From: Candidatus Hodarchaeota archaeon
GTDB lineage: Archaea > Asgardarchaeota > Heimdallarchaeia > Hodarchaeales > Hodarchaeaceae
Length of the DNA: 57,359 nucleotides
Assembly: GCA_016839815.1 (NCBI GenBank)
Contig: JAEOTM010000160.1
Location: forward strand, 1-57,359
Reading direction: 5' to 3'
Positions within the stretch are counted from its first letter, which is position 1; the number at the start of each line of letters is the position of its first letter. Of this stretch, positions 3,609-55,903 are shown piece by piece. The position numbers were made by a program, and so were the translations under genes. The notes under the pieces were generated by a model. It did no database searches. It was not told the DNA's origin and was given only the letters and a program-made list of their open reading frames with translations.

Positions 3609-3811
3609 GCCTGACGAGCTTCCTTCTTAAATTCCGTCAGTTCTTTTTCATCTAGCTCGCTCTGTAGACTGCCGAACATTTCGAGGTACTTTTCAATGTT
3701 TGGTTTGGTCGTGAGTCGAATAACCGTCTCACTATACGACTCACCCTCCTTTTTAGCCTTTTTAAGAAGGTTATATGCCTTAGAATTTAAACTAATCGTT
3801 TTATAGGTCAT
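3599..3811 (-). CDS. vapB: VapB-like antitoxin (small DNA-binding protein)
   Basis: 70-aa basic/acidic protein immediately upstream of and overlapping the PIN gene, the classic TA arrangement. Confidence 0.5.
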   Translation of the reverse strand: MTYKTISLNSKAYNLLKKAKKEGESYSETVIRLTTKPNIEKYLEMFGSLQSELDEKELTEFKKEARQAWN

Positions 3812-3873
3812 TTAGATCCTCATATATTATTTCATCTATGAGCTTTATATTTCTTTTTAAAATCTAAAGTACA

Positions 3874-4428: not shown

Positions 4429-4553
4429 TCCTTATCCTCCATGGATTGTATCATTAATTAAGTCCTAAATTTAGACAAAAAAGTCTAGTGAGGAACAAAT
4501 ATTTAAGGAGAATGACCGCAAAGAAGAATCAACGATTAAAAACAAACGAAATA

Positions 4554-4632
4554 TAAAAAAAAGAAAGGAGCTACTGGTTAGACAATAATCTCGATACTTA
4601 GCTTGCGGACACGCTCTTTGTAGCGATTTCAC
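4554..4632. repeat. ~85-bp tfb-3'-end repeat, copy 2
   Basis: Same architecture as the other copies. Minus frame encodes *NRYKERVRKLSIEIIV*. Hairpin TACTG-N6-CAATA carries one mismatch. Confidence 0.8.
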
Positions 4633-4698
4633 GCCATTATTTCTTAAAACCTAATCCTTTAATATCATCAAAAAGCCATAAGTAATGGAAGGTTACGT

Positions 4699-17599: not shown

Positions 17600-17685
17600 T
17601 GGAATCAGTTATTATTTCCATAATATGTGTATTATGACTCCTGAGGATGAGGAAATTTCTCCTTAGGTTATATTAGGTTTTCTCT

Positions 17686-18597
17686 CTACTGATGGATTTT
17701 GGTTAATAAATAATCAATAATTTTCTCTGCTACATGAATCTTAGGATTAGCCATTTCAAATGCTTTCCAACCTGGACAGGCATTGACTTCAAGGACAAAA
17801 GTTCCGTTTTGGGTAGGAAAAAGATCGATTCCTGCCACTTCAATCCCAATTCTATCCGCTATCTGATGAACTAATTCTTCATCTTCAGAGGACAATGTAT
17901 ATGCTTCACATTCTGCTCCAAGGGCAAAGTTAGTTCTCCATTCTCCCTTTGGAGCGGTTCGTTTCATACTCCCAATGATCTCATTTCCAATGTAAATAAC
18001 CCGAATATCTGCTGACTGAGGAGCTTCATGTTGCGGACCAGAATAAAGATATTCTTGAATCATGATTGGTTCTGTTGATCTCATAAATAATGATTCAATT
18101 ATTTCTTCTGCGCTTTTTGGATTAAGAGCTAACATAGTTCCACTTCCCCTTGTTGCATCAGGTAGTTTGATAACTAAAGGAAATTTAAATGCCTTAAGTA
18201 TTTGATCCACCTGAAAAGGATTGTTAATTAAGATAGTTCTAGGTAATTGAATTCCCATTATCTTGGATAATGTCTGATAACAACGAAACTTATCTCGGGA
18301 GAGAAAAAGAGCTTCCGCAGAGAGAGTACTTGGAGTACCCATAAGCTCAAAGTGTTTTAGAATCAATAAGCCAAGATTAGTTTGAGATCTACCGATACGG
18401 GGTATAACTCCAAGAAGAGGAAGTAATGATTGGTTCGCAAACCGAGCATCAACCCCTGAAGAGCTTATTAAAGGAAAAATATATTGTGTGGAGAGGAAAA
18501 CCCCAGAAACATTATTTCGTCTATTGATGTCCTTAAGTAATTCCGTAGTTGGAAAATAATCCTTGTTTCGGCTTAGGACACCTATTTGCTTTGCCAT
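17686..18597 (-). CDS. ATP-grasp ligase, RimK/LysX-like
   Basis: ATP-grasp motifs (VIKLPDATRGSG, EYLYSG, GIDLFPTQNGTFVLEVNACPGW). Confidence 0.7.
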   Translation of the reverse strand: MAKQIGVLSRNKDYFPTTELLKDINRRNNVSGVFLSTQYIFPLISSSGVDARFANQSLLPLLGVIPRIGRSQTNLGLLILKHFELMGTPSTLSAEALFLSRDKFRCYQTLSKIMGIQLPRTILINNPFQVDQILKAFKFPLVIKLPDATRGSGTMLALNPKSAEEIIESLFMRSTEPIMIQEYLYSGPQHEAPQSADIRVIYIGNEIIGSMKRTAPKGEWRTNFALGAECEAYTLSSEDEELVHQIADRIGIEVAGIDLFPTQNGTFVLEVNACPGWKAFEMANPKIHVAEKIIDYLLTKIHQ

Positions 18598-18616
18598 ACA
18601 GGAATGTCTCCAGAGA

Positions 18617-18724
18617 TAGCCCCGCTCAGATTCGAACTGAGGTCAAAGAGTGTTTCTCCACGATTCATGTTTAATTAACTCGTGCAATAGAACTCTTTAT
18701 GATGGACCACTACACTACGGGGCT
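18617..18724 (-). tRNA. intron-containing tRNA, anticodon CUA by canonical parse (identity uncertain)
   Basis: Minus-strand read AGCCCCG-TA-GTGT-AGTGGTCCA-TCAT-A-AAGAG-TTCTAT[35-nt intron]A-CTCTT-TGAC-CTCAG-TTCGAAT-CTGAG-CGGGGCT-A. Acceptor, D-loop (A14, GG, A21), T-loop TTCGAAT and a BHB-like intron at 37/38 all fit. The anticodon loop reads U-U-C-U-A-U-A. Confidence 0.6.
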
Positions 18725-18728
18725 GAGT

Positions 18729-18932
18729 TTAACGAACTGGACTCGAAAAAGTAAGAATATCGTCAATAAGTTCTACATGTGTTATTAACATTCTTCTGCA
18801 GCAATATCGTTTCAATTCAAATGAATCGAGTAATTCTGATGCTTCCTTACCTGCTTTCAAGCCATCCAAAAAATCATCATAGTAATGAGCAATAACTTTA
18901 CCGCAGGTATAACATCGGATTGGAATCATCAT
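18729..18932 (-). CDS. rpoN: DNA-directed RNA polymerase subunit N (Rpb10 homolog)
   Basis: MIPIRCYTCGKVI...RYCCRRMLITHVELID matches the RpoN zinc-bundle signature. Confidence 0.85.
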   Translation of the reverse strand: MMIPIRCYTCGKVIAHYYDDFLDGLKAGKEASELLDSFELKRYCCRRMLITHVELIDDILTFSSPVR

Positions 18933-18948
18933 AGTTAATGGTCACCTT

Positions 18949-19602
18949 CTAGAATCCATCATCACTCATAGGACGTCTGCCGCGTGGTGCTCTGAAAAGT
19001 TCAACTCTCAATTGAGCATCTTTTTCTGGTGTTAACTCGCCGCGTTCACGGAGAATTTCTTTAGTTAACAACCAAAATATCATGGCTAATGAATTGCGCC
19101 CTTTGTTATTGCATGGAATTGCTAGATCGATATTCTTGATTGTATTATCAGTATCAACCAAGGAAATTACGGGTATTCCCATTCGATAAGCTTCTTTTAG
19201 GGCCTGATGGTCGAAATGAGGATCAGTAATCAAGATACTTGTGGGTTCAACAAAATTATAGCGCCCCTTGATATTTGGATTGGTGAAGATTCCAGGAATA
19301 AATCTTCCAGTTATCGGAACGGCTCCTGTCACTTTACAGAACATTTCTACAGGATAGATACCATAAGCTCTTACGCTACATGCCGCTACTCGTGACATAT
19401 CTTGTCGTGCGAGGAATTTTGCTGCGGTGCGTATACGATCATCAGTCTTATGGACATCAAGCACATATAGTCCATCGCTTCTTGTACGATAGATAGCCCA
19501 ATCCATGCTTTTCATTCCGCTGGACGTTCCTATATGAACACCAGCCTTTAAATAATCCTCTAGAGGCGTGAGCAATTCTTCTTCTTGTATAGGGGTTGTC
19601 AT
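18949..19602 (-). CDS. rps2: 30S ribosomal protein S2 (uS2)
   Basis: LKAGVHIGT...RVAACSV...ITDPHFDHQALKEAYRMGIPVISLVDTDN is the uS2 fold, archaeal length. Confidence 0.85.
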   Translation of the reverse strand: MTTPIQEEELLTPLEDYLKAGVHIGTSSGMKSMDWAIYRTRSDGLYVLDVHKTDDRIRTAAKFLARQDMSRVAACSVRAYGIYPVEMFCKVTGAVPITGRFIPGIFTNPNIKGRYNFVEPTSILITDPHFDHQALKEAYRMGIPVISLVDTDNTIKNIDLAIPCNNKGRNSLAMIFWLLTKEILRERGELTPEKDAQLRVELFRAPRGRRPMSDDGF

Positions 19603-25634: not shown

Positions 25635-26255
25635 CTATAAGTTCTTTAATTCTCTTCTAAAGTCAGAAAGCCAACGGGAAGCTTGAAGCTCTAATTTTTT
25701 CAGTTCATCGGATTTTAATAATTGTCCTGGTTTTTGTTTATCCATCCAGCTTATCCACTGATTTATATCCTGAGTAACCCAGTGGTTATTCCCATACATT
25801 GGCGCTCTAACTAAAATATCATGAATTTCATCCAAGTAAGGTAATACTCGATCAACAGTGGCTATTGATTCTAGATGGAGAAGATCAAGAAGTTCAATGG
25901 CATTAGCAACAAATTCTGCAGCTATAGTGGGGAGCTTTTTTATGTGTGAATAATCAATTTGATTGTAGGCATTATCATCCGAGCCCTCGGTCAATTTTAG
26001 TTTAGCAAGGCCAGATGGAAATAGCTCAGCAATTCCTTCTTCTTCGATAAATTGATCAACATCAAAATTATACTGATCTAATTGCGCGCGTGTCTCAATT
26101 ATACTAGTTAGAAGGGTTCTATGTTGTTTATGATATGTACTCGAATCAATTTCCCCGCGATCATATGTTCGCGAAATTAAATCAAGTGTACCAATATTCG
26201 CAAATAATCGGGCTTCTAGATCCCATCTGTGTGATAAGTTCTGGGGGAATGACAT
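25635..26255 (-). CDS. ESCRT-I subunit Vps28-like
   Basis: N-terminal L..IGTLDLISRTYDRGEI...Y resembles the Vps28 core. C-terminal QWISWMDK...SDELKKLELQASRWLSDF resembles the Vps28 C-domain (W..L......L.E.Q...L.DL..AY..F). Confidence 0.55.
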   Translation of the reverse strand: MSFPQNLSHRWDLEARLFANIGTLDLISRTYDRGEIDSSTYHKQHRTLLTSIIETRAQLDQYNFDVDQFIEEEGIAELFPSGLAKLKLTEGSDDNAYNQIDYSHIKKLPTIAAEFVANAIELLDLLHLESIATVDRVLPYLDEIHDILVRAPMYGNNHWVTQDINQWISWMDKQKPGQLLKSDELKKLELQASRWLSDFRRELKNL

Positions 26256-26264
26256 TGTTTTAAC

Positions 26265-27008
26265 CTAACTCAAATATTGAAGCTGTTTACGGAGTAAATA
26301 CAACTCTTTGGTGTATTTCTTGTAGAGACGTGAATATTCAAAGATTGAAATCTCACCTGCAGCATACCTGTCTTCAAGAGAGGACAAGAGATCGGAAATT
26401 GCTATTCGTTCAGATTCTAATTCCTCTTGATCTGTTACCTTCATTTTCACTGATCTCGACGATTCCTCAGTTTTCATCATAGATCGGGCTCTAAATCTTG
26501 CCAATTCTTCATCCTTTGCAGTTAACCTAGCATTCAATGAAGATAATTCTGTTCGTAATGCTTTTGTTTCTACAGTTGATCTAGAACCTGGTTTTTCAGA
26601 AGTTGGTTCAGTTAATCTTACCATTGTATCACGTACAGATCTAGCGGTCTCACCACGGGGAGCTGGTGGTACTCGTGACATGAGGTTCTTTAATGCAATT
26701 ATTACCTGATATAGATGAAATTCCGCTCTCCAATTATCCAATATTCTTAATTGAATAAAACCATCTTTATCAATATTAGGATGATCCATCCACCCAATTG
26801 CTGTTACAACAGGAGGTACATTTGGAAAATATTCTGGAAGGAAAAGTTCAAATGTGAACATATTCCTTCCCCTATTTGTTGTATATGTTAATGTTCCTTG
26901 CCAACGAGCAAGAGATTCTCCTACTGGATTAAATCCTGATGCAGCATTATTTGAATATGTTAATTGGGCCTCTCTCGCTAATATAAAGTCTCTATCCATT
27001 AATTTCAC
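26265..27008 (-). CDS. ESCRT-I Vps23/Tsg101-like UEV-domain protein
   Basis: UBC-fold HPNIDKDGFIQLRIL with Gln in place of the catalytic Cys (E2 variant), followed by a coiled-coil stalk and C-terminal box. Confidence 0.6.
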   Translation of the reverse strand: MKLMDRDFILAREAQLTYSNNAASGFNPVGESLARWQGTLTYTTNRGRNMFTFELFLPEYFPNVPPVVTAIGWMDHPNIDKDGFIQLRILDNWRAEFHLYQVIIALKNLMSRVPPAPRGETARSVRDTMVRLTEPTSEKPGSRSTVETKALRTELSSLNARLTAKDEELARFRARSMMKTEESSRSVKMKVTDQEELESERIAISDLLSSLEDRYAAGEISIFEYSRLYKKYTKELYLLRKQLQYLS

Positions 27009-33959: not shown

Positions 33960-34343
33960 ATGAGTCAAAGACCTCGCGAATTCAATATTGAGTCGTTAAA
34001 AACTCCGAAAGGAGACGTACCAACCGTAAAAGGACTAGAAACGCTAATTGAGCTTATTTTCTCTGAAAATCACAAAATCGATCAAAATTTTACTATTCTT
34101 AATCAGAAAATTGAAGATTTCAGCGCTATGATTTCCCATCAAACAAAGCAGATCTCAGATCTAGCAAAGAATTTCTCTGATCTAGTTGTCATATTAGGAG
34201 GTTTGGAACGAAAATTTGAACAGCAACAATCTGCTTCAACAAATAATCGTTTCATTGAAACTATCGATTTATTAACATTAAAGAAGGATATATCACAAAT
34301 TCTAAATAAAATAGAATCCCTCTTTGTAGTTAATGAGAGGTAG
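33960..34343 (+). CDS. hypothetical coiled-coil protein
   Basis: 127-aa helical ORF with no motif. Confidence 0.25.
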   Translation: MSQRPREFNIESLKTPKGDVPTVKGLETLIELIFSENHKIDQNFTILNQKIEDFSAMISHQTKQISDLAKNFSDLVVILGGLERKFEQQQSASTNNRFIETIDLLTLKKDISQILNKIESLFVVNER

Positions 34344-34352
34344 AAGTTCTCT

Positions 34353-34565
34353 ATGAACAAAAACAGAATAAAACTAATTTCTCGTCCAATTGGATCTTGG
34401 GATCCGTTTCAAGCTCCCTCACGATGCATAATATGCTGGAAACCAATGAAGGAAGGTGATGCATTAATGGAATGTCCCCATTGTCATAGCAGGGGGCATC
34501 AGGAGCATATGTTACGCTGGTTGTCAAAAAAGGATTATTGTCCTTACTGCAATAACAAGTGGTAA
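34353..34565 (+). CDS. small RING-like zinc-finger protein
   Basis: C-x2-C-x13-C-x3-H-x3-H-x2-H-x10-C-x2-C spacing approximates a RING-H2 cross-brace (ligand 6 is His). Confidence 0.4.
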   Translation: MNKNRIKLISRPIGSWDPFQAPSRCIICWKPMKEGDALMECPHCHSRGHQEHMLRWLSKKDYCPYCNNKW

Positions 34566-42172: not shown

Positions 42173-43348
42173 CTATCCATTTAGTTCCAGTAGTTTCTGA
42201 GATTTTAACGCCATCAGGTATTCTTCATTAGTTGGTATTACTAGAACTTGAACTTGAGAATTATTGGCTGAAATTGTTGTTTCTTCTTCCCCAATTGCTT
42301 CTTTATTACTAGAAGAGTCTAGAATTACGCCTAAACTTCCTAATCCATCCATGATTAATTCTCGGAAATACGGGGATCTTTCACCTATTCCACCCGTAAA
42401 TATAATTACATCTAATCCTCCCAATACAACAGAGTAGGCTCCTATATATTTCTGAATCCGATAAACAGCCATTTGGATAGCTAACTGCTCTTTTGAGTGT
42501 CCGCTCTGAGCACGGCTCTGGATATCACGCATATCTCTAAATCGGCCTGTAATTCCTAAGAAACCACTTTGAGAATTCAGTTCATAATCAATTTGATCTA
42601 TTGACAAGTTTTCAGATCGCATCATGGCAAGCATTATTCCTGGGTCAAGATCCCCAGAGCGAGTACCCATTATCAGTCCTTCAAGAGGAGTTAATCCCAT
42701 ACTTGTATCGACAGATTTTCCATCGTAGATAGCTGTTACTGATGCTCCATTACCGAGATGTAAAACGATAATTCTCTTACAATTTTCTGATTCCAATTTA
42801 TCTATAGCTCTATTGGTTACATATTCAACAGATGTACCATGAAAACCATATCTTCGATAAGAGTATTTTTCATACCATTTTCTTGAGATCGCATACTGAA
42901 AGGCATATTCTGGAATAGTATTATGAAATGAGGTGTCAAAAACAGCAATATGAGGAATTTTTGGGAGTTTCTTCTTACTAGCACGAATTCCCATGAGATT
43001 TGCAGGATTATGAAGCGGAGCAAGCTCAGAAAGATTTTTTATTTGGTTTTCAATCTCATTATCAATGACCACTTCTTTCCGGAACTCTTCACCACCATGT
43101 ACAACTCTATGGGCTACCGCGGCAATATCCTCTAAATTGAAAAATTTTAAAACATAATCAAGAGCATCTTCATGGTTCTTACAGCTTATTTCCTTTTTAA
43201 GCTCTTTATCTTCACCATTATGGACAATTTGAGAATTGGATAAACCAATCCTTTCTACTAATCCTTTAGCTAATAGCTGTTCAGATTCCATATTGTAAAT
43301 CGAATATTTGAGAGAAGATGAACCAGAATTTATGGTTAGGATAATCAA
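42173..43348 (-). CDS. ackA: acetate kinase
   Basis: MIILTINSGSSSLKY N-terminal ASKHA motif, VHGG, HLGNG, IFTGGIGE signature motifs. 391 aa. Confidence 0.9.
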   Translation of the reverse strand: MIILTINSGSSSLKYSIYNMESEQLLAKGLVERIGLSNSQIVHNGEDKELKKEISCKNHEDALDYVLKFFNLEDIAAVAHRVVHGGEEFRKEVVIDNEIENQIKNLSELAPLHNPANLMGIRASKKKLPKIPHIAVFDTSFHNTIPEYAFQYAISRKWYEKYSYRRYGFHGTSVEYVTNRAIDKLESENCKRIIVLHLGNGASVTAIYDGKSVDTSMGLTPLEGLIMGTRSGDLDPGIMLAMMRSENLSIDQIDYELNSQSGFLGITGRFRDMRDIQSRAQSGHSKEQLAIQMAVYRIQKYIGAYSVVLGGLDVIIFTGGIGERSPYFRELIMDGLGSLGVILDSSSNKEAIGEEETTISANNSQVQVLVIPTNEEYLMALKSQKLLELNG

Positions 43349-43358
43349 CCAAAACCCT

Positions 43359-44807
43359 CTAATAAGTACCTGACTTCGAATCGGTTCCTTTTACGATAGC
43401 TATTGAGGCAGAAGCTCCAATTCTAGTTGCACCCGCGTTGATCATTTGTTCTGCAATTTCATGAGTTCTAATTCCACCTGCAGCCTTTACTCCCATTTCT
43501 GGACCTACTGTTTTGCGCATGAGTGCGATATCCTCAACTAATGCTCCTGCGGTGCTAAAACCAGTGGAAGTTTTCACAAAATCTGCACCACTTAATTTTG
43601 TTAAAAGGCTACCTTTCACAATTTGCTCCTTGGTTAGTAGAGCAGTTTCAAGAATAACTTTAACAATAGCTTTTCCAGCCGCAGCATTTACAACAGCTTG
43701 GATATCTTCCCTAACTAGATCGTCATTTCCTGATTTTAAAGCACCAACGTTAATCACCATATCTACTTCTTCTGCACCATTTGCTATAGCATCACGTGTC
43801 TCAATGGCTTTTACTGTTGGAGTTGTGGCTCCTAAAGGAAAACCAATTACGGTACACACTTTTACAGAACTACCTTTCAGATATTTTGCTGCTTTTGAGA
43901 CGTTTGTTGGATTAATACACACTGTGGCAAATTTATACGTAGCTGCTTCTTCACAAAGCTGTTTAATCTCTTCATCCGTCGCATCTGCACGTAAATTCGT
44001 GTGATCGATGTATTGAGCCAACCCCATATCATAACCGTTAATTCCCGTTTCAGAGGTTATCCTTGTGGCTCCTCCATTAACTAATGCTTTGACTGCAACT
44101 TGAGATTTTCCATCTAAGCCAATATCTTTTCCTGCAGTCCCAACTGTGTAGGTACGACTAGAGGGGGATGGAATATAAGAAGAAGGATCCTGATCGGTAA
44201 GATTTTGTACCTCTACAATTTTTATTCCCATAGATCTTAATTGATCTACAATCCCTTCAATTCTTCTATTCATAGCTGGTGGCACTTGATCTTTTTCAAT
44301 TTGACAACAATATATTGAATCATAAGCAGCAATCACAGGTTTTCCATACATCAATCCGAAAACAAGTGTAATTGTACCAAGAGTATCTGCATTTAACGCA
44401 GCCACCTTAGCTGCTGTATTTAAAGAAAGAATAGGCACATAGATAACATCAATTTTTCCTAAGATGTTTTCAAAATACTCTTCGGAATAATCTGTGATAA
44501 TCATAGCTCCTTCAGAGACTTTTCTAATATCAGGCATTCCGATGATTTTGATAGCTGCACGAGTCATAACGATGTACGTATTTGTATAGGATTTAGTTAT
44601 TAGTTCTATTTGATGCATTACTTCATTGATTTCTTTATTTCCACCGCATAGGAGAATCAAAGCAGAGGTTCCTGAGGAAATACTGTAATTTACTTTCTTA
44701 TTAGAAGTCTGTAACCTTGGGTTTGACTGTGTTGGAGGAGTAAGTGAATCCTGATCAAGCTTTCTCATAACCTCCTCTGTAATTTTTTGTATCATTTCAT
44801 TACTCAT
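43359..44807 (-). CDS. deoC: deoxyribose-phosphate aldolase (DeoC) with N-terminal encapsulation-peptide-like helix and ~200-aa extra domain
   Basis: C-terminal ~230 aa align with DeoC, including Schiff-base Lys in FVKTSTGF. N-terminal [17 protein letters not shown] amphipathic helix plus linker. Middle alpha/beta domain unassigned. Confidence 0.8.
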
Positions 44808-44826
44808 TTAGTATACCTTCTTGACC

Positions 44827-45117
44827 TTAACTTAATTCTATTTGTTTTCCGTTGACTTCGACGTAGTCCACGACACCTATTATTAATGCATCAACCGCTG
44901 CTTTATCATTTTGCATTATCCCTCGTATAGAGTTACCTTCGCGAATCACAAGAACACAATCTCCAATTCCGGCTTTTGCTGTATCCAACGCGATAATTGA
45001 TGGATCAGTAAACTCTCCTTTCAAATCTATCGGACGTACTACTAGTATCTTTCCATTTTCATGACTTTCCGTCTTGATTGGAGCTACTACATTCCCAATA
45101 ACTTTAGCAAGAATCAT
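44827..45117 (-). CDS. BMC vertex protein (BMC-P, EutN/PduN/CcmL family)
   Basis: 96 aa, MILAKVIGNVVAPIK...GIGDCVLVIREG...IIGVVDYVEV is the EutN fold. Confidence 0.85.
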   Translation of the reverse strand: MILAKVIGNVVAPIKTESHENGKILVVRPIDLKGEFTDPSIIALDTAKAGIGDCVLVIREGNSIRGIMQNDKAAVDALIIGVVDYVEVNGKQIELS

Positions 45118-45656
45118 TCTGACTCACTCACTACAGGTTCAGGCTCAATTTCTTGAATTTTTTTTGGTATTTTCTTTCTAACTGATTTTTTCCTAGGTTT
45201 TTTCTTAGGAATAGGTTTCGTTTCTTCATCTACTTCCGCAGGAGGAACTTTAGATTTAGGGATCGATTCTAGAGCTGTTTTTTCTGTAATTTCCCTGATT
45301 TCTTCCTCAGGTTCTTCCTCAAGTGGTTTCAGTGTGGGTGGTGGTGCTTTCTTCTTCCGTTTTCTCTGAGGTTTTCGTTTTGCACTTTTAGTTACATAAT
45401 ACTCCTCTACATAACCTACAATACACTCATCAATTGGAACAAGCTCTTTCGGAAATACAATAGCTGCTTCTTTTTTACTGACAACATATACAATATCTCC
45501 AGGTCCTGCCGTCTCGATTCCATCAGCAGCAACATAAGGGGTTCCTAAGGGCTGAAGATTATCGTCTAATCCTTGGACTATTAGAAGTCGTAATGAATTC
45601 AAACCTGGATCTTTTGTCGAGGCAACAACATTTCCTATTACTTTACCAAGTTTCAT
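45114..45656 (-). CDS. BMC-P vertex protein with ~90-aa Lys/Glu/Pro-rich C-terminal tail
   Basis: N-terminal 90 aa EutN-like (MKLGKVIGNVVAST...). C-terminal KRKPQRKRKKKAPPPTLKPLEEEPEEE...KKKPRKKSVRKKIPKK is low-complexity. ATGA overlap with the downstream gene. Confidence 0.8.
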   Translation of the reverse strand: MKLGKVIGNVVASTKDPGLNSLRLLIVQGLDDNLQPLGTPYVAADGIETAGPGDIVYVVSKKEAAIVFPKELVPIDECIVGYVEEYYVTKSAKRKPQRKRKKKAPPPTLKPLEEEPEEEIREITEKTALESIPKSKVPPAEVDEETKPIPKKKPRKKSVRKKIPKKIQEIEPEPVVSESE

Positions 45657-45660
45657 ATAA

Positions 45661-46119
45661 TCACGCTGACTTCAGATATTTTAATTCAATTTCAGTAATT
45701 TTATTCACTCTCGTTTCATGCCTTCCTCCACCAACTGGAGTAGTCAACCAGATTTTAACAATATTTTGAGCAATACCAGGTCCGATAACTCTTGCACCTA
45801 AAGTTAGGACATTTGAGTTATTGTGTTCTCGTGCAGAATTAGCAGTAAATTCATCAGTACATGGAGTAGCTCTGATTCCTTTTATCTTGTTGGCAATAAT
45901 TGCACTAGCAACTCCTGTTCCATCGATTATAATTCCTACGGATTCTAAGGACACAGCTACTGTCTGAGCCACTAATAAAGCGATATCAGGATAATCCACA
46001 GGATCAGTAGAATAACATCCATAATCTGTAACGTCATATCCTAATCCTTTAAGGAATTTAATCAAATCTTTCTTCAGATGATATCCTCCATGATCGGATC
46101 CAATTATTATTTTCTTCAT
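45661..46119 (-). CDS. rpiB: ribose-5-phosphate isomerase B / sugar-phosphate isomerase (RpiB/LacAB)
   Basis: MKKIIIGSDHGGYHLK...GCYSTDPVDYPD...GTGVASAIIANK...VLTLGARVIG is the RpiB family, 152 aa. Confidence 0.85.
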   Translation of the reverse strand: MKKIIIGSDHGGYHLKKDLIKFLKGLGYDVTDYGCYSTDPVDYPDIALLVAQTVAVSLESVGIIIDGTGVASAIIANKIKGIRATPCTDEFTANSAREHNNSNVLTLGARVIGPGIAQNIVKIWLTTPVGGGRHETRVNKITEIELKYLKSA

Positions 46120-46144
46120 TTGAATTCAACATGTTAAATAGACT

Positions 46145-46690
46145 TTAAAGTAGAGTTTTCACTAAATCGGGGTGAGGAGCAGGAATTATTGCTATAGAGA
46201 GTATTAATCCTTCGCCCTTTACGCGATTAACCCCTGCTTCCACAGCTGCTCTTACAGCACCAACTTCTCCTGTTAAGACTACGAAAGCTTTTCCACCAAT
46301 TGCACGACTCATCCGAATTTCGACTAGCCGCACCTGTGCACTTTTCACAGCCTCATCACCAACCATTATGGCCGTTGGAGCAGAATATGTTTCGACGACT
46401 CCGATTGCACCAACTTCATCGATATTTGTTGAACCTGCAATTGCGGGGAATACCTCAGGGTGAATGTTTGGTATCACTGTATAATTTACTAGGGTTTCAC
46501 CAGCGATTTCACTTCCAGCAATCAAGGAGCTTTGAACAGCTGCAACTGCTCCTTGAATTATTATCAAATACTTCCCAGGGCATACTGGTGATGCGAATAG
46601 CAGCTCTACGTCAGCTGTTTTTACAATCGTATCCGCACTTAATATACCTCGAGCAATTACATTCGTCTCAAGAACTCCGATTGCGCGCAT
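46145..46690 (-). CDS. BMC-T tandem-domain shell protein, PduT-like with conserved Fe-S cysteine
   Basis: Two BMC domains in 181 aa. SPVCPGKYLII matches PduT ICPGKFLL (the Cys that ligates the trimer 4Fe-4S). Second domain AIGVVETYS... Confidence 0.8.
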   Translation of the reverse strand: MRAIGVLETNVIARGILSADTIVKTADVELLFASPVCPGKYLIIIQGAVAAVQSSLIAGSEIAGETLVNYTVIPNIHPEVFPAIAGSTNIDEVGAIGVVETYSAPTAIMVGDEAVKSAQVRLVEIRMSRAIGGKAFVVLTGEVGAVRAAVEAGVNRVKGEGLILSIAIIPAPHPDLVKTLL

Positions 46691-46766
46691 TTATCTTACC
46701 TCTTTGACCGTAAATAAAGATGAAAGTAGTGAATATTAGCTGCTTTATCCACAGCTAATCGTTCAT

Positions 46767-47045
46767 TCAACCTTTCTTTGGAAGTATACTCTCAACTTCA
46801 TCATGAGGTCGTGGAATCACATGAGCTGAAGTTAATTCACCAACTTTTCGCGCAGCAACTGCACCAGCTTCAACAGAAGCTTTGACAGCACCTACATCAC
46901 CTCTAACCATTACAGTGACGAATCCACCGCCAATAACTTCGCGTCCCATTAGATGAACGTTCGCTGCTTTCACCATAGCGTCAGCCGCTTCAATAGATGC
47001 AACTAACCCTTTTGTTTCTATTAATCCAAGTGCTTCTTTAGCCAT
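46767..47045 (-). CDS. BMC-H hexameric shell protein (PduA/EutM-like)
   Basis: [27 protein letters not shown]...[23 protein letters not shown] is the canonical Pfam00936 sequence. Confidence 0.9.
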
Positions 47046-47071
47046 TTTTTATTTCACCAATTTTTCTTGTT

Positions 47072-48397
47072 TTATTTTGTCTTTTCAATGACAATTTCTT
47101 GTCCAATATGCCGGATAATCCCGCTGATACTCGCGTGAATTACCGCACCTAGTGACCCATCAGGAATTTTCCCAATGAGTGCACCTTTTTCTACCGTTTC
47201 TCCTACTTTCACAATGGGAATAGCAGGGTCACCGATATGTTGTTTGAGAGGTATTGAGACTTGTCGAACCTGCATCTTCCGTTTTTGAATTGGACAATCG
47301 TGATTATAACTAATTAAATCCAATCGAGAAATTAGTCGTTTTACAGGTAGTTTTCGGTATTCCCTCTCAGGATGAATCGATAGTACTTTTCGATTATGAG
47401 AATTTTTTAATCCTTCCGCTCTCAACTGTTCTTTAACTTCTGTCATCATTTTACAGGGATCTAAACCCATAGGACATCCATAATAAGTACAGGCTCCACA
47501 TTCTACACAAAGGAATGTTCCAGTCATATATTCAGGTCTTTCGGGTGCTCCCCAAGCTATACCTCGCATGACTTTATCAGGGTATAATTCATGACCTAAC
47601 AAAAACCTAGGACACACTTCTGTGCATAATTGGCATCTTATACAGGCCGCTTTGGTAACTATAACTTTAGAGGAAATCCTTTCATTTTTCATTTTTAAAA
47701 CGAAATGATCCTTAGGTAAGACTATAATTCCAGAAGTTAATTTTGTAATAGCTTCTTTAGGATCAATAGCTTTACCCATCATTGGACCATTAATTAATAT
47801 ACCATAATTATCGATTGTAGCTCCTCCTGCGGCTTTGATTGCATCTTTTATGGAGGTGCCTATTGGAAAATCCATAGTAGTGGGATTTTTTACTGCACCT
47901 GTAATAGTAACGTATCGAGAGACAATCGATTTGCCTTCAGAAGCTTCAGAAAGGTTTATTAACGTGTATACATTATTAACTACCACCCCTATATCAAGAG
48001 GAAGCCCACTTTCCGGAATTATTTTCCCTAAGGCCTCATACACTAGAACATGCTCATCTCCAGCAGGATAAACATCATCTAGTAGGAGAATTTCAAGTCG
48101 TGAATCTGTTTTTATTACCTGTTTTAGCTTCTTAATTGCAGCTTTATATTTTCTTTTTACTGCAATAATCCCTCTTTTTGCCCCAGTTGCTTTCATCCCT
48201 AATTGTAGTCCATTCACTAATTTTTCTGGGAAAGCTACCATTAATTGTTGATCTACTCGTAAAAGAGGTTCACATTCTGCTGCATTCACAATGTAGGTAT
48301 CCACTTTTGCAGATAGCTTTATATGAGTAGGAAAGCCAGCTCCTCCTGCTCCTACTATACCAGAATTGCGAGCCATTTCTACAATATCGGAACTCAA
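47072..48397 (-). CDS. PduS/RnfC-like Fe-S flavoprotein oxidoreductase
   Basis: GAGGAGFPT NAD(H)-binding motif and two 4Fe-4S motifs (CIRCQLCTEVCP, CVECGACTYYGCP). 441 aa. Confidence 0.75.
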   Translation of the reverse strand: MSSDIVEMARNSGIVGAGGAGFPTHIKLSAKVDTYIVNAAECEPLLRVDQQLMVAFPEKLVNGLQLGMKATGAKRGIIAVKRKYKAAIKKLKQVIKTDSRLEILLLDDVYPAGDEHVLVYEALGKIIPESGLPLDIGVVVNNVYTLINLSEASEGKSIVSRYVTITGAVKNPTTMDFPIGTSIKDAIKAAGGATIDNYGILINGPMMGKAIDPKEAITKLTSGIIVLPKDHFVLKMKNERISSKVIVTKAACIRCQLCTEVCPRFLLGHELYPDKVMRGIAWGAPERPEYMTGTFLCVECGACTYYGCPMGLDPCKMMTEVKEQLRAEGLKNSHNRKVLSIHPEREYRKLPVKRLISRLDLISYNHDCPIQKRKMQVRQVSIPLKQHIGDPAIPIVKVGETVEKGALIGKIPDGSLGAVIHASISGIIRHIGQEIVIEKTK

Positions 48398-48423
48398 CTA
48401 ATTTTGCCTCTTTTATGATAATA

Positions 48424-49851
48424 TCATATTATTCTGAAAGCATCTACAAGAGTACATCGTCTTTGTCTTGTAAAGGTTCTTGCAGAGGTAAGTCCTTCTC
48501 CTGTTGGACCTGCTATCGTCATGGTAGTGTACCCCTCTCCTCCGAAACCTATTCCAGCCAATGATGGTGCATTTTTAACGAAGATGGTTGTTTCTATATT
48601 TTTTGCTACTAAACTCATATTCCCTACTGAATCACTCCACATCATTGCTGTATGCTTAAATCCATGTTCTGCTTTCTTAGCCTTTCGTAACGCTTCCTCT
48701 ATTGTCTTAACCCGAACTATTGGGAGAACAGGCATTAACATCTCAGAAATCACAAATGGGTGTTCATCATCAGGCACCTCAGCAATTATTAAGCGAATAT
48801 TATCGCTAACTTGGATACCTATTCCCTCAAGAATTACTTTAGCATCTTTCCCAATGAAATCTCTATTGACGATAGGAAATCTTCCCTTCTTCCCTGTAAA
48901 CACAAGATTCTCCAATTGAATGATTTGGTCTCCAGTAAGTTCATATGCCCCATAATTCTTCATTTCTGCCTTTAATCGGTTCGTAATTGCGTCAAATGCA
49001 AAGACTTCCTTTTCAACAATGCAAACAATATTATTATCAAAACTTGCACCTTCCACAATCCCCCTCGCTGCTTTTTGAATATCAGCTGTATCATCCACAA
49101 TGACAGGAGGATTTCCTGGACCAGCACAGACTGCTTTCTTTCCAGATTGCATAGCCGCTTTAACAACCGCACTACCCCCAGTTACTACCAAGCATCTTAT
49201 TTTCTTGTGGGTCATTAGAGTCTGTGCTGACTTGATTGTGGGGGATATTGTTGACGTAAGCACATTCTCTGGACCTCCAGCTTCTAAAATTGCCCTATTC
49301 AATAATCTGACTGCTTCATTACTTGCTCTTTTAGCTGAGGGATGAGGATTAAAAACTACTGAATTTCCTGCAGTAACCATTGAAATTCCGTTGTTAATAA
49401 CGGTTGCAGTTGGATTGGTCGAGGGCGTAATAGATCCAATTACACCGTATGGGGCCATTTCAACTAATGTTAATCCTTTATCTCCTGTCCATGTATTTGG
49501 TACTAAATCTTCTAGCCCAGGAGTCTTACGGGCACATAATAAGTTTTTTGCAACCTTATCCTCTAATCGTCCTAAATTAGTCTCTTGAATTGCTAATTCA
49601 GCAAGATATCGGGAATGTTTGATGGCTGTATCACGCATTGATTGGATAATTTCTTTACGCTTTTCAAGTGAAAGATCCATTAATGCAGTTTGACTTTTTT
49701 CTGCAGCTTCAATGGCCTGCTCAATGTTCTGAAATATACCCCCTCCTGCAACGGCGGGGAGATTTTCTAAACCCGAATAAACCTGATAAGCACGTATTTT
49801 TTGTACAACAGTATTGACGATTTTGGCAATTTGTTGTTCATCATATGTCAT
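48424..49851 (-). CDS. CoA-acylating aldehyde dehydrogenase (EutE/PduP family) with N-terminal encapsulation-peptide-like helix
   Basis: Strong EutE-like blocks (GPGNPPVIVDDTADI, catalytic Cys in DNNIVCIVEKEVF, C-terminal TSARTFTRQRRC). N-terminal EQQIAKIVNTVVQKI amphipathic helix. Confidence 0.85.
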   Translation of the reverse strand: MTYDEQQIAKIVNTVVQKIRAYQVYSGLENLPAVAGGGIFQNIEQAIEAAEKSQTALMDLSLEKRKEIIQSMRDTAIKHSRYLAELAIQETNLGRLEDKVAKNLLCARKTPGLEDLVPNTWTGDKGLTLVEMAPYGVIGSITPSTNPTATVINNGISMVTAGNSVVFNPHPSAKRASNEAVRLLNRAILEAGGPENVLTSTISPTIKSAQTLMTHKKIRCLVVTGGSAVVKAAMQSGKKAVCAGPGNPPVIVDDTADIQKAARGIVEGASFDNNIVCIVEKEVFAFDAITNRLKAEMKNYGAYELTGDQIIQLENLVFTGKKGRFPIVNRDFIGKDAKVILEGIGIQVSDNIRLIIAEVPDDEHPFVISEMLMPVLPIVRVKTIEEALRKAKKAEHGFKHTAMMWSDSVGNMSLVAKNIETTIFVKNAPSLAGIGFGGEGYTTMTIAGPTGEGLTSARTFTRQRRCTLVDAFRII

Positions 49852-49899
49852 TTAATTACCTTCACTTAAATGTAATTTCTATGTTGAATGAGGGAATCA

Positions 49900-50190
49900 T
49901 CACTTTCTATAGCTTTCTTTTCCATTTATCTGTATGAAATCAATTATTGCTTGAATTGTTGCATCAGTTGGTCGATCTTTAGTCATTGCAGTCAGACGAG
50001 AGGAGCTACCTGTTACAACTAACACTAATTCATCTTCTCCTGCTCCAACTGCATCAATAGCTACAAAGGGAGAGCTCTCTGGTTTTAGGTCAGTCATGTC
50101 CACTGGTTGAACAATTAAGAGTTTAAAACCTTTAATACCGGCATCCTTCTCAGTACTTACTACATTTCCGATAACCTTACATACTTTCAT
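49900..50190 (-). CDS. BMC vertex protein (BMC-P)
   Basis: MKVCKVIGNVVSTEK...GAGEDELVLVVTGSS is the EutN/CcmL fold, 96 aa. Confidence 0.85.
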   Translation of the reverse strand: MKVCKVIGNVVSTEKDAGIKGFKLLIVQPVDMTDLKPESSPFVAIDAVGAGEDELVLVVTGSSSRLTAMTKDRPTDATIQAIIDFIQINGKESYRK

Positions 50191-50201
50191 GTATTTTTCA
50201 C

Positions 50202-50921
50202 CTAAATCTTAATGATTTTTATATCTAGCATTTTGGCCTTTTCGTGAGCTAGAGGCGTTATAATAGTTGAATGTGGTACAAATATTTCATGAGTTTTACC
50301 TTGTAAATTCTCTAAATAATCTTCAGTTATTAAATCTGGAATAGCGGGAGTATGTTTGACAAATTGGTCAGCTAAATCGTCAACATTTACTAATCTAAAT
50401 CCCATTTCAATCAAAGTGGAAAGGTGTTTGCTCAATTGATTGGTCAATATCCCAGACGGCCCATAAGCAAACGTTAGTTCTGTTGGAGGAAATGGAGTAA
50501 CTATATAAACTGGAATTTGAGATAACAAGCCTTGAAGTAATAAATTAACTGTTGAATTAGAATCTTCTAAATGGGTGATTTTGTTAGCAAGCTCAAAACT
50601 AAAAGCACCATACATTACTGATTCAAGGTCGTTGTAAAACTGTAAACAAAAATCTCCGCTCGATTTAATTATAATATCCATAGTTGGAATTGATGCAGCT
50701 CGTGATGTGAATTTGAGGGCATCATTAATATCTTTCTTAGTCCAAATTAGAATCTTCGCCTGTTTTTGAGCTAGTCTGACAAGAGCATTGAACAAATCAT
50801 CCAGTCCTTGCCCCATATGTGTTAAGATGCCTAGTATTTCATATGGTCCAAGTTTTTGGTCAGGTGTGAGAACACTTCTTACTTGCTGAGTTACAAGTGA
50901 TTCAAGCTCTTTCTCATTCAA
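50202..50921 (-). CDS. BMC-associated protein of unknown function with N-terminal encapsulation-peptide-like helix
   Basis: KELESLVTQQVRSVL amphipathic N-terminus plus linker, then a 200-aa alpha/beta domain with no recognised motif. Embedded between shell genes. Confidence 0.4.
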   Translation of the reverse strand: MNEKELESLVTQQVRSVLTPDQKLGPYEILGILTHMGQGLDDLFNALVRLAQKQAKILIWTKKDINDALKFTSRAASIPTMDIIIKSSGDFCLQFYNDLESVMYGAFSFELANKITHLEDSNSTVNLLLQGLLSQIPVYIVTPFPPTELTFAYGPSGILTNQLSKHLSTLIEMGFRLVNVDDLADQFVKHTPAIPDLITEDYLENLQGKTHEIFVPHSTIITPLAHEKAKMLDIKIIKI

Positions 50922-50938
50922 GATGATAACCTTCTTCC

Positions 50939-51259
50939 TTAATCTCTACCAGGATCTTCTTCTACACTTGAGGTCCGCTTTCTGACTTTCTCAATTAGCT
51001 CGATTGTCACCTTATCTGGCCGTGGAATCACATTGGTAAGTAACCCACAGGAAATCTTACGAAGTTGCTGTTTTGCAGCTTCAATTGCTTCATGAACTGC
51101 TGCAACCTCACCCTCAATGATCACTATCACAAGACCACCAGAAACACGTCTTAATGAAATTAGATTCACATCAGCAGCTTTCATAGCTGTATCTGTGGCT
51201 ACAATAGCACCGATGCGTCCACAAGTCTCCATGAATCCAATTGCGTCCATAATTTTCAC
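50939..51259 (-). CDS. BMC-H hexameric shell protein
   Basis: DAIGFMETCGRIGAIVATDTAMKAADVNLI...GGLVIVIIEGEVAAVHEAIEAA. 106 aa. Confidence 0.85.
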   Translation of the reverse strand: MKIMDAIGFMETCGRIGAIVATDTAMKAADVNLISLRRVSGGLVIVIIEGEVAAVHEAIEAAKQQLRKISCGLLTNVIPRPDKVTIELIEKVRKRTSSVEEDPGRD

Positions 51260-53112
51260 CTGAATGGAGAAAAAGCCTCTTTATCTAAATCCGTGATTAA
51301 TGTCCCCATTTCTCCATTATTCAGTGCTAAGGCATTACCCTCATCAAGGTCCAGATGCAACTCCAGACTATAATCAGGATGAACTCTAATCATGACCTCA
51401 TCTAATATTCCTGCTCGTGTTCCTGGAAATTTAACCGCTACTACCTGTTTATCATTTACACTTAGTCTTTGTGCATCTTTGGGTGACATGTGAATGTGTC
51501 GTGCAGCAAATATAACTCCTTTTTCTAGTGTGATTGCTCCTTTGGGGCCAAGAAGATGTACCCCAGGAGTACCTGCTAAATTTCCTGATTGACGTGTAGG
51601 TGGATTTATCCCTAAAACATACCCATCACTACGAGAAATTTCTACTTGGGTCTCTTTTCTAAAAGGACCAAGAATTCGTACCCCATAGATTGCTCGTTTA
51701 GGACCAATTAAATCAACTACTTCTTCACATGCATATTCTTTCGGCTGGGAAAGGGAATTTAGAGGAGTTAGAGATGCATCTTCTCCAAAAAGTTTATGGA
51801 AATCACTCTTTTCCAAATGAATATGCCGTGCAGAGAGAGAGACTGGAATCTGGTTATCGCTAATAACTTTGGACAACTCTTGAGTAATAATCCTTCTTAC
51901 TAAGTTTTTATTACTTGGAGAACTATTTCGGTGAGTAATCGGTTGATACTCACACCCTAGAGGACCACAATATCTACCTACATACTCCGCAGATGGTCGA
52001 TAAATTACAGGCTTAACTGAAGGTGTTTCTGGATATTTTTCTTCCAATACATGAGCTGTCCACCCTGCTACTCTTGATGTTGTAAAGATTGGTGTAAATA
52101 AATCTACAGGTATGTTAAGACTCGTATAAACTGTAGCTCCATATAAATCTACGTTGGGATAGATCCCCCGATTCTTTCTCCGCTTAAATTCAGCCTGCGT
52201 AATCTCAACCATTTTATTTGTAGTTTCGTACATCCACTTAGCAATTCCCCCCTTCTGTTTAACAAGATCACCTGCCATTTCCTTGAGTATTTTGGCCCTT
52301 GGATCAATTGTTCGATAAACAGCATGACCCATTCCCATAACTCGTTTACCAGCATTAAAACGATTCTTTACCCATTCTTCAATACTTGGGGCTTTTTTGA
52401 TTTCCATTAAACTCTCATAGACAAGATAATTCGCTCCTCCATGATATTGTCCTGATAATGATCCGATTGCTCCAGAAATAGCTGCATAGAGATCTGCTCC
52501 TGTTGAGGCGATGACTCTTGCAGTAAATGTGGATGCATTAAAGGAATGTTCAGCATGCAAAATTAATGAGACATCAAAGATTCTTGTTTCTTCCTTTGGG
52601 GGGATTTTTCCATGAAGCATAAAAAGAAAATTAGCTGCATAGTTTAATTTGGGATTCGGCGATATAGGATCCTTATTATTTCTTATTCGTTCCCATGCAG
52701 TCACTATTATAGGGAGAAGCGCAATGATTTTTACTGCAATATTTCGATCTGACTCTTTTGTCCCTCTCCCTATCTCAGTATCATATCCTGCTAATAAGGC
52801 TAAAGACGATTGAAGAACACTCATGGAAGGAGTTGCTTTTGTAGTTTTTTGTAAATGAGTTATCAACTCTGAAGGGAGCTTTTGGTTTGATCGAATTGAA
52901 GTCTTGAATGATTTCAATTTGTCTAAAGAGGGGAGTTTTCCAAACAAAAGTAAATATACTACTTCTTCGTACGTTGAATTTCTCGCTAAATCCTTTATGT
53001 CATATCCACGAATAAAAAGATTCCCCTTATCTCCTTCAATCAAGCAAATATTAGTATCTGCAACTTCGACTCCACGGAGACCAGTTGATTTGTGGCTATG
53101 TTCTTCAATCAT
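51256..53112 (-). CDS. fusion protein: citrate-synthase-like domain (N) + PduL-type phosphotransacylase (C)
   Basis: Residues 1-~390 carry citrate-synthase-family blocks (LILHAEHSFNASTF, GMGHAVYRTIDPRA, RVAGWTAHVLEE). Residues ~400-618 carry two PduL (PF06130) repeats (ARHIHL, ARHIHM). ATGA overlap with the downstream BMC-H. Confidence 0.75.
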   Translation of the reverse strand: MIEEHSHKSTGLRGVEVADTNICLIEGDKGNLFIRGYDIKDLARNSTYEEVVYLLLFGKLPSLDKLKSFKTSIRSNQKLPSELITHLQKTTKATPSMSVLQSSLALLAGYDTEIGRGTKESDRNIAVKIIALLPIIVTAWERIRNNKDPISPNPKLNYAANFLFMLHGKIPPKEETRIFDVSLILHAEHSFNASTFTARVIASTGADLYAAISGAIGSLSGQYHGGANYLVYESLMEIKKAPSIEEWVKNRFNAGKRVMGMGHAVYRTIDPRAKILKEMAGDLVKQKGGIAKWMYETTNKMVEITQAEFKRRKNRGIYPNVDLYGATVYTSLNIPVDLFTPIFTTSRVAGWTAHVLEEKYPETPSVKPVIYRPSAEYVGRYCGPLGCEYQPITHRNSSPSNKNLVRRIITQELSKVISDNQIPVSLSARHIHLEKSDFHKLFGEDASLTPLNSLSQPKEYACEEVVDLIGPKRAIYGVRILGPFRKETQVEISRSDGYVLGINPPTRQSGNLAGTPGVHLLGPKGAITLEKGVIFAARHIHMSPKDAQRLSVNDKQVVAVKFPGTRAGILDEVMIRVHPDYSLELHLDLDEGNALALNNGEMGTLITDLDKEAFSPFR

Positions 53113-55808: not shown

Positions 55809-55903
55809 TAGCGGCTGGAGGATTTGAACCATCCGATCTCGGGGTTTCGCAAGAATTCCTTCTTTATGAGCCCCGCGGGATAACCTAGCTACCCTAAGCC
55901 GCT
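55809..55903 (-). tRNA. initiator tRNA-Met (CAT) with 19-nt intron
   Basis: Minus read AGCGGCT-TA-GGGT-AGCTAGGTTA-TCCC-G-CGGGG-CTCATA[AAGAAGGAATTCTTGCGAA]A-CCCCG-AGATC-GGA(T)GG-TTCAAAT-CCTCC-AGCCGCT-A. A1:U72, three G:C pairs closing the anticodon stem, A73. The T-stem needs one bulged T. Confidence 0.8.

Follow-up and report, generated by a model that had tools for sequence, protein, structure and literature searches.

Introduction

In the Escherichia coli suppressor supE (glnV44), a G36-to-A change in tRNA-Gln(CUG), whose reading of CAG is apparently redundant, creates the amber-reading anticodon CUA, and TAG is still a stop codon of the host. supE is a laboratory or strain-level bacterial mutation, and its tRNA is charged directly by GlnRS, has a purine at position 37 and contains no intron. 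The tRNA-Gln(CUA) and tRNA-Gln(UUA) of ciliates, other eukaryotes and TAG-recoded phages, in which UAG or UAR means glutamine (Gln), are likewise anticodon mutants of tRNA-Gln. There TAG often serves as a sense codon and terminates translation no longer, or only in certain contexts. Here we describe an intron-containing tRNA gene with the anticodon CUA on a 57,359-nucleotide (nt) stretch of DNA from a Candidatus Hodarchaeota archaeon (assembly GCA_016839815.1, contig JAEOTM010000160.1). This whole stretch is called the window below. Sequence comparison identifies the gene as a derivative of tRNA-Gln(CUG), and it probably encodes a weak, natural amber suppressor.

To our knowledge, archaea outside the pyrrolysine (Pyl) and selenocysteine (Sec) systems are considered to keep to the standard stop codons. 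None of the new codes validated by a Codetta screen that covered 2,309 archaeal species was an archaeal reassignment, and nine archaeal stop-codon inferences were flagged as candidates (PMC8629427). Orphan 'tRNA-Pyl' genes with the anticodon CUA have been reported from Thorarchaeia and Lokiarchaeia without Pyl genes, and their role was left open (Sun et al. 2021, PMC9723677). They were read as remnants of a lost Pyl system, and none was reported for Heimdallarchaeia. The pipeline of that study, Prokka with ARAGORN, was blind to intron-containing genes because it was run without intron detection. In full-text literature searches we met no earlier account of a tRNA-Gln(CUA) from Hodarchaeales or Heimdallarchaeia. 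Class B tRNA-Pyl naturally carries C37 beside CUA, and a C37A change raises its suppression (PMC9499178).

The Hodarchaeal gene resembles each of these systems in part. The one-base change of supE is reproduced exactly between two Hodarchaeales loci, L147 and L149. Unlike supE, the Hodarchaeal allele is fixed across species-level divergence, recurrent and intron-bearing, carries U37 and is presumed to be charged through the GluRS/GatDE route. In contrast to the systems in which UAG means Gln, TAG ends about 25% of the open reading frames (ORFs) here, no sense TAG was seen in the loci examined, and the tRNA has no match among viral contigs. By analogy, supE appears to be closest in mechanism, and the tRNA-Gln(CUA) of eukaryotes and phages with TAG as Gln appears closest in evolution. 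The gene shares with the orphan Asgard 'tRNA-Pyl' a CUA anticodon, a high use of TAG stops and an absence of Pyl machinery (here, among the window ORFs). Compared by description only, it differs from them in being an intron-bearing derivative of tRNA-Gln. Class B tRNA-Pyl has the same combination of CUA with a pyrimidine at 37 and is a precedent for an amber decoder that works in attenuated form, although it belongs to another tRNA family with another synthetase and a dedicated amino acid. Suppressor tRNAs as such are known; what would be new, judging from these comparisons, is one that is archaeal, chromosomal, intron-containing, conserved and recurrent and that carries U37.

Structure and splicing of the tRNA gene

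The gene lies on the minus strand at 18617..18724 and is supported by ARAGORN in intron mode, by its orthologues and by cloverleaf pair counts. ARAGORN -i called c[18617,18724] with a score of 108.9, a 35-nt intron at the canonical position 37/38 and the anticodon CTA. The tRNA gene at 18617..18724 was missed by default ARAGORN, which has no intron mode, and by Rfam at the gathering threshold. A search of 18400-18950 with Rfam E-values up to 10 also missed it and returned only chance snoRNA matches. Read from 18724 to 18617, the minus strand runs AGCCCCG-UA-GUGU-AGUGGUCCA-UCAU-A-AAGAG-UUCUAU-intron-A-CUCUU-UGAC-CUCAG-UUCGAAU-CUGAG-CGGGGCU-A. The pre-tRNA of 108 nt would yield a mature tRNA of 73 nt, and CCA is not encoded.

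The 5' exon (18687..18724, minus strand; tRNA positions 1-37) holds AGCCCCG, the D-arm with G18G19, AAGAG and the loop residues UUCUAU. The 3' exon (18617..18651, minus strand; positions 38-73) holds A38, CUCUU, UGAC, the T-arm CUCAG-UUCGAAU-CUGAG, CGGGGCU and the discriminator A73. The acceptor stem AGCCCCG/CGGGGCU is separated from the D-stem by a 2-nt spacer (UA), the D-loop has 9 nt including GG, and the variable loop (TGAC) has 4 nt. A14, G18G19, A21, the anticodon stem AAGAG/CTCTT and the T-arm CTCAG-TTCGAAT-CTGAG were all found. Every landmark of the preliminary description, which had been made from the letters of the window, was thus recovered by ARAGORN -i and in the sequence, with coordinates exact to the base. 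The anticodon C34-U35-A36 occupies 18688..18690 (minus strand, TAG on the plus strand), with C34 at 18690, U35 at 18689 and A36 at 18688, followed by U37 at 18687; the relatives have G36 and G37. The mature anticodon loop reads U32 U33 C34 U35 A36 U37 A38.

The 35-nt intron (18652..18686, minus strand), delimited by ARAGORN -i and by its splice motif, interrupts the gene at 37/38. Its bulge-helix-bulge (BHB) motif has the canonical archaeal form, with two 3-nt bulges (AU^U and AC^A) around a 4-bp helix, UUCU:AGAA. This helix forms between AGAA in the 3' part of the intron and U32-U35, and it is flanked by the anticodon stem on one side and by an inner intron helix, CACGA/UCGUG, on the other. 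The two bulges, the 4-bp helix and the flanking helices that define an archaeal 37/38 BHB intron are therefore all present. Since the motif fixes the splice sites, it also fixes the anticodon as C34 U35 A36 with U37. Other splice registers, tried by hand, gave only loops in which CUA, CAA or AAA is combined with a pyrimidine at 37, and none was supported by a BHB. The reading of the anticodon as CUA with U37 had come with the suggestion that ARAGORN be run with intron detection; that run and the splice motif agree with it, and the intron placed by the predictor is canonical and does not yield a sense anticodon. The 3-4-3 motif was intact in 15 of 15 orthologues. Among them the inner helix covaries, appearing as CACGA/UCGUG, ACAU/AUGU, AAACGG/CCGUUU and ACGUGU/ACACGU.

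Derivation from tRNA-Gln(CUG)

Orthologous loci were collected by scanning genomes with ribosomal protein S2 as bait, and further loci were fetched through UEV and RimK homologues. An orthologous tRNA was present at the same locus in 14 other assemblies, so the gene is well beyond anything that chance would produce. The order S2-rpoN-tRNA-rimK-radA was kept, and the tRNA lay between rpoN and rimK throughout Hodarchaeales. The closest relatives were YT1_021 (JAEOTC01), YT2_065 (JAEOTQ01), B3_Heim (NJBF01) and MAG_8 (DXJL01), which are metagenome-assembled genomes of Hodarchaeota or 'Heimdallarchaeota B3' with S2 proteins 96-99% identical to that of the window. In other Hodarchaeales the S2 identity was 80-84%. 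The gene is also carried by GCA_030589605.1, and the CUG-bearing relatives include CP070760 and GCA_976551185.1. The rpoN-rimK site of L005, L006, L007, L010, L011, L029 and L147 holds a tRNA-Gln(CUG) with G37 and an intron at 37/38, and the loop of the CUG-bearing orthologues reads YUCUGG. In the window and L001-L004 this tRNA body is combined with the loop UUCUAU, that is, CUA with U37.

The 26-nt 5' part of the tRNA body was also used to query metagenome contigs. The pattern is a general one, and its matches were marine archaeal tRNA-Gln genes. At least 120 archaeal tRNAs share it; among the matches listed, 80 have the anticodon CTG and 40 have TTG, all have a purine at 37, and none has CTA. 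The window gene has the cloverleaf of an archaeal tRNA-Gln with A1:U72 and A73, and it is orthologous to bona fide tRNA-Gln genes; its anticodon is CUA in place of the YUG that reads CAR. A1:U72 and A73 are marks of archaeal tRNA-Gln, and GatDE recognises A1:U72 and the D-loop (PMC9499178). Both GatDE determinants are retained in the window tRNA. On sequence grounds, the tRNA-Gln body, the shared locus and these marks together identify the gene as derived from tRNA-Gln(CUG) by G36A and G37U, substitutions at neighbouring positions.

The preliminary description had offered a suppressor tRNA, a selfish or mobile tRNA and a pseudo-tRNA as identities, and had recognised neither the tRNA-Gln origin nor the recurrence reported below. 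Only the suppressor survives comparison with the orthologues. A selfish or mobile tRNA is contradicted by the strict rpoN-rimK synteny across Hodarchaeales and by the absence of any match to the tRNA in IMG/VR viral contigs. The pseudo-tRNA is contradicted by the divergence data given in the next section. That description was right in finding no tRNA-Pyl features. In tRNA-Pyl a single nucleotide separates the acceptor stem from the D-stem, the D-loop has 5 nt and lacks G18G19, the T-psi-C consensus is missing and the variable loop has 3 nt (PMC9499178); the window tRNA does not have these structural marks. A Pfam scan of the window ORFs found no pylS or pylBCD gene.

Two variations were noted at positions of interest for tRNA-Gln identity. 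C72, which gives an A1-C72 mismatch at the pair recognised by GatDE, occurs in L139 (8754-8860), L151-L153 and L007 (6887-6994). Since one CUG gene has it as well as a CUA lineage represented by four assemblies, it is neither a sequencing error nor specific to the suppressor. G12:C23 is present in all Hodarchaeales tRNA-Gln orthologues (alignment A1); this pair has been given as the eukaryotic state, and C12:G23 as the archaeal state, of tRNA-Gln (PMC9499178).

Purifying selection on the CUA form

The window, YT1_021, YT2_065, B3_Heim and MAG_8 form a core clade in which all five genes are CUA with U37. Between the window and the four other core genomes, the two exons differ at 3-4 of 73 positions. 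In the same comparison, 51-55% of the 4-fold degenerate sites of eight neighbouring genes differ, as do 10-17 of about 35 intron positions (28-49%). The exons have thus diverged about 10-fold less than expected under neutrality. All five core genomes share the same residues at loop positions 32-37, and one exon change within the clade is compensatory (A27-U43 against G27-C43). Among 13 distinct orthologue sequences, 99.2% of stem cells were paired and 3 pairs had changed on both sides, and in slid controls pairing fell to 36-51%. By these measures the CUA form is under purifying selection and is not decaying. The neutral decay of stems and loops that marks a tRNA pseudogene was not found. A conserved splice motif together with a conserved anticodon loop would not be expected of a pseudogene or of a mere processing signal.

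Recurrent origin and loss

A neighbor-joining tree with bootstrap was built from eight syntenic proteins (about 1,950 aligned residues) of this one genomic neighbourhood. The core clade received 100% bootstrap support, and so did its grouping with L143 and L145, two sisters without the tRNA. A second clade, ((L147, L149), (L139, L151)), was also supported at 100% and was sister to the CUG-bearing L007/L011/L029 at 88%. Its tRNA carries a private D-loop variant, GUGGACC, and occurs in three anticodon states. L147 and L148 have CUG with G37, L149 has CUA with G37, and L139 with L151-L153 (four assemblies or samples) has CUA with U37. The spliced tRNAs of L147 and L149 have a single difference, at position 36, and their introns are 82% identical.

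On the sampled tree, position 36 therefore mutated three times or more, and the change to CUA arose at least twice. The G37U transversion happened twice, each time on a CUA background. Given the few exon substitutions per lineage, chance recurrence of this transversion is unlikely (about 1% by a rough estimate of our own), an indication that selection acts on position 37 after the anticodon has become CUA.

No tRNA was present at the locus in eight genomes. L143/145, L135/146 and L008 fall into three groups of the tree, and L150, L154 and L144 were not placed. CAG usage is not lower in CUA genomes than elsewhere. These two observations together imply that this gene copy is not needed to read CAG. 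Such redundancy in the reading of CAG, as judged from this locus, is the usual precondition for the origin of a suppressor. In L150, an IS605 OrfB/TnpB (Cas12f-like) gene at 3356-4648 adjoins rimK, and the rpoN-rimK spacer has grown to about 450 nt. This lineage may have lost the tRNA in connection with the activity of transposons.

TAG as a stop codon

Translated with the standard code, the window contains 65 ORFs, which end in TAA (31), TGA (19) or TAG (15), and 88% of it is coding. TAG accounts for 32 of 129 stops (25%) at CUA-bearing loci, 11 of 63 (17%) at CUG-bearing loci and 20 of 87 (23%) at loci without the tRNA. In 14 orthologous genes the protein ends coincide between genomes, and the stop codon switches freely among TAA, TGA and TAG. 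This switching at common C-termini is alike in CUA and non-CUA genomes. For example, S2 ends in TAG in the window genome and in TAA in its four closest relatives, and the acetate kinase gene (42173..43348, minus strand), which had been cited earlier as an instance of a TAG stop, does end in TAG. Shorter extensions behind TAG were looked for in CUA genomes and not seen. Neither in-frame TAG in conserved genes nor a scarcity of TAG as a terminator, the two signs of TAG-to-Gln reassignment, was observed. A general reassignment is excluded.

Three candidates for a translated TAG in the window were rejected. A UEV(Vps23-like)-TAG-Vps28 fusion (27008..25635) corresponds to separate homologues of about 250 and 206 amino acids in all relatives, and L134 and L139 encode the two in different frames. 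For a fusion of a 127-amino-acid protein with a RING protein across TAG (33960..34565), the genes overlap in different frames in L135-L138. In the third, 70 codons and a TAG precede MetRS, and the Pfam MetRS profile begins at residue 13 of the ORF, so that the N-terminus is complete. In the first two gene pairs, at 25635..27008 (minus strand) and 33960..34565 (plus strand), both genes lie in one frame with a gap of a single TAG and 3 codons. We regard this same-frame pairing as a coincidence, since the genes are separate and in other frames in relatives.

The stop codon of rimK was also compared. It is TAG in the core clade and in L139, which makes six of the seven CUA-bearing genomes examined; the seventh, L149, uses TAA. 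At the eight CUG-bearing loci examined (L147 and L148 being the same allele) it is never TAG. A link between the tRNA and the rimK stop is nevertheless unsupported, given L149 without TAG and the tRNA-less L143, L145 and L150 with it. The distribution probably reflects phylogenetic inertia. Behind the rimK stop (window about 17600..17685), an in-frame stretch '(L)ENLI(N)' is conserved whether a genome carries CUA, CUG or no tRNA at the locus. The most likely explanation is a conserved DNA element, perhaps the radA promoter, and not coding sequence.

Proposed function and alternative explanations

With moderate confidence, we read the gene as a natural supE-like amber suppressor, probably a weak one, that inserts Gln and is kept by selection. 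As in supE, the CUA anticodon is derived from a sense tRNA by point mutation, both between L147 and L149 and between the core clade and its CUG outgroup. G36-to-A converted CUG to CUA in the rpoN-rimK tRNA-Gln, and G37-to-U came second. The pre-tRNA would probably be transcribed with, or just after, the S2-rpoN unit, cut by the archaeal splicing endonuclease at the canonical BHB, ligated and provided with CCA. Charging would follow the archaeal tRNA-Gln route, in which a non-discriminating GluRS attaches Glu and GatDE amidates it; acceptance of A36 by GluRS is presumed. The charged tRNA would then place Gln at UAG in competition with aRF1. Weak decoding is expected because position 37 is a pyrimidine, which would weaken the A36-U1 pair. 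About a quarter of the genes would still normally terminate at UAG, with low-level read-through, and G37U might represent the attenuation of an otherwise costly suppressor. A benefit could lie in the rescue of, or dependence on, particular TAG codons, or in useful C-terminal extensions.

Several findings weigh against a Gln-inserting suppressor. A constitutive one would be expected to select against TAG, and CUA genomes show no depletion of TAG. The 57-kb window and about 100 kb of related loci yielded no translated TAG. All TAGs that bound long ORFs there sit at C-termini common to relatives that use TAA or TGA, and at the three window sites where a TAG is flanked by long frames open in the coding direction, the relatives have separate genes. 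The tRNA also lacks the purine at 37 that would support the A36-U pair. U37, present in the window gene and nine other sequences, is exceedingly rare among tRNAs that decode and occurs in none of the at least 120 relatives listed, and it could abolish rather than weaken decoding. G37 on a CUA background, the presumed intermediate, is known from one contig only (L149).

If the suppressor works, low-level Vps23-Vps28 and X-RING fusion proteins would be made in the window genome, and C-terminally extended proteins would be predicted in close relatives of eukaryotes. A selectively kept, repeatedly evolved tRNA-Gln(CUA) would mean that suppression of the supE type can persist for long in nature beside heavy use of TAG stops, and the repeated G37U looks like a tuning of suppressor strength. 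The locus would also be a natural test case for the 'ambiguous intermediate' route of reassignment and for cellular tolerance of read-through. For annotation the gene poses a problem, as intron-blind finders miss it and others label it tRNA-Pyl or tRNA-Sup, which can lead to misleading inferences on Pyl in Asgard archaea.

The alternative that survives best, though we hold it unlikely, is a role outside decoding. The tRNA could serve as a processing signal for RNase P/Z, as an amino-acid donor or as a regulator or decoy of GluRS/GatDE, with CUA and U37 removing it from translation. Its place in an apparent operon, where 5 nt separate it from the rpoN stop upstream and 20 nt from the rimK start downstream, would suit such a role, and so would its loss from several lineages, the crippling effect on decoding expected of U37, the lack of avoidance of TAG stops and the absence of sense TAG in the examined loci. 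A pure processing signal, however, needs no intact intron, BHB or anticodon loop. In the core clade positions 32-37 are invariant while 4-fold sites have diverged by about 52%, and the BHB has been kept through covariation. Drift in a tRNA freed from decoding would have left assorted anticodons, whereas only G36A and then G37U were seen, repeatedly. Moreover, the tRNA-less lineages retain the rpoN-rimK arrangement, so the operon does without the tRNA.

UAG might also have two meanings. UAG-to-Gln and UAA-to-Gln are the commonest stop reassignments in eukaryotes and phages, and the purifying selection on the CUA form calls for a benefit. The change arose repeatedly and the gene was retained. 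Read-through by near-cognate tRNA-Gln has been documented (PMC13192750), and in Sifarchaeia 21% TAG stops exist alongside Pyl decoding (PMC9723677). Working through the U37-weakened tRNA, UAG could be an ambiguous intermediate towards Gln, both a terminator and a weak or gene-specific Gln codon, with at least one dependent gene elsewhere; this version is tentative and, we think, improbable. Were it true, it would be the first natural system in Archaea that suppresses a stop codon with a canonical amino acid, in a lineage close to the stem of eukaryotes, where UAR-to-Gln is the most frequent code change. As an explanation in place of the weak suppressor, in which a few genes elsewhere with an in-frame TAG read as Gln maintain the tRNA, it is distinctly unlikely. 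No in-frame TAG occurs in the 65 window ORFs or the syntenic loci, which excludes a general reassignment, although a handful of dependent genes may exist elsewhere.

A redundant tRNA-Gln(CUG) copy in neutral decay, its anticodon mutated by chance, is very improbable. The locus is dispensable in several lineages and G-to-A transitions are common in AT-rich genomes, but the low exon divergence, the compensatory stem changes, the intact BHB and the twofold occurrence of the same G37U transversion all contradict it, and with 4-fold divergence of 51-55% the five core assemblies are not near-identical strains. A tRNA-Pyl or another non-Gln identity, such as charging by a PylRS-like enzyme, is scarcely credible: ARAGORN names any CTA tRNA 'tRNA-Pyl', and a possible 26:44 A-U pair would give a 6-bp anticodon stem and a 3-nt variable loop, but the UA spacer, the 9-nt D-loop with G18G19 and the TTCGAAT T-loop are foreign to tRNA-Pyl (PMC9499178), the body is identical to tRNA-Gln, no pyl genes are among the window ORFs and Pyl is reported lost in Heimdallarchaeia (PMC9723677).

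Genomic context and related observations

On the minus strand the genes are arranged in the order S2, RpoN, tRNA, RimK-type ATP-grasp ligase and RadA. Ribosomal protein S2 (18949..19602, minus strand) was identified with Pfam, and RNA polymerase subunit N (rpoN; 18729..18932, minus strand) by Pfam PF01194 and synteny. The RimK-type ATP-grasp ligase downstream of the tRNA (17686..18597, minus strand; Pfam) ends in TAG. Upstream are genes for ESCRT-II, Vps4, two Snf7 proteins, EAP30, Vps28, a UEV/Vps23-like protein, ubiquitin, E1, E2 and RING proteins, a group that constitutes the Asgard ESCRT/ubiquitin cluster. A microcompartment-type locus was found with Pfam at 42173..53112 (minus strand). 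It encodes bacterial microcompartment shell proteins, two EutN/CcmL proteins, an aldehyde dehydrogenase, an RnfC/Nuo51-like flavoprotein, RpiB, a DeoC-type aldolase, acetate kinase and a 618-amino-acid citrate-synthase-PTAC fusion. Microcompartments of Hodarchaeales have already been described (bioRxiv 10.1101/2025.11.08.687404).

The window contains a second intron-containing tRNA gene, a tRNA-Met(CAT) at c[55809..55903] (minus strand; Rfam, 46 bits). It has A1:U72, a run of three G-C pairs at the lower end of its anticodon stem and an intron of 19-21 nt, and from these features it looks like an archaeal initiator tRNA with an intron. Two tRNA-Gln(CUG) genes among the related sequences also differ in their introns. 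L074 (Ga0209211_10001572), at 3876-4000, has an apparent long insertion in the T-loop (TTCGAA...AATCCGAG), a candidate non-canonical intron. In L070 (Ga0255058_10148270; minus strand, from 283 of the reverse complement), the gene is intron-less with A37, and its exons are otherwise identical to those of the intron-containing G37 gene of L010. As far as the two sequences tell, this pair shows the loss or gain of an intron together with a change at position 37 within one tRNA family.

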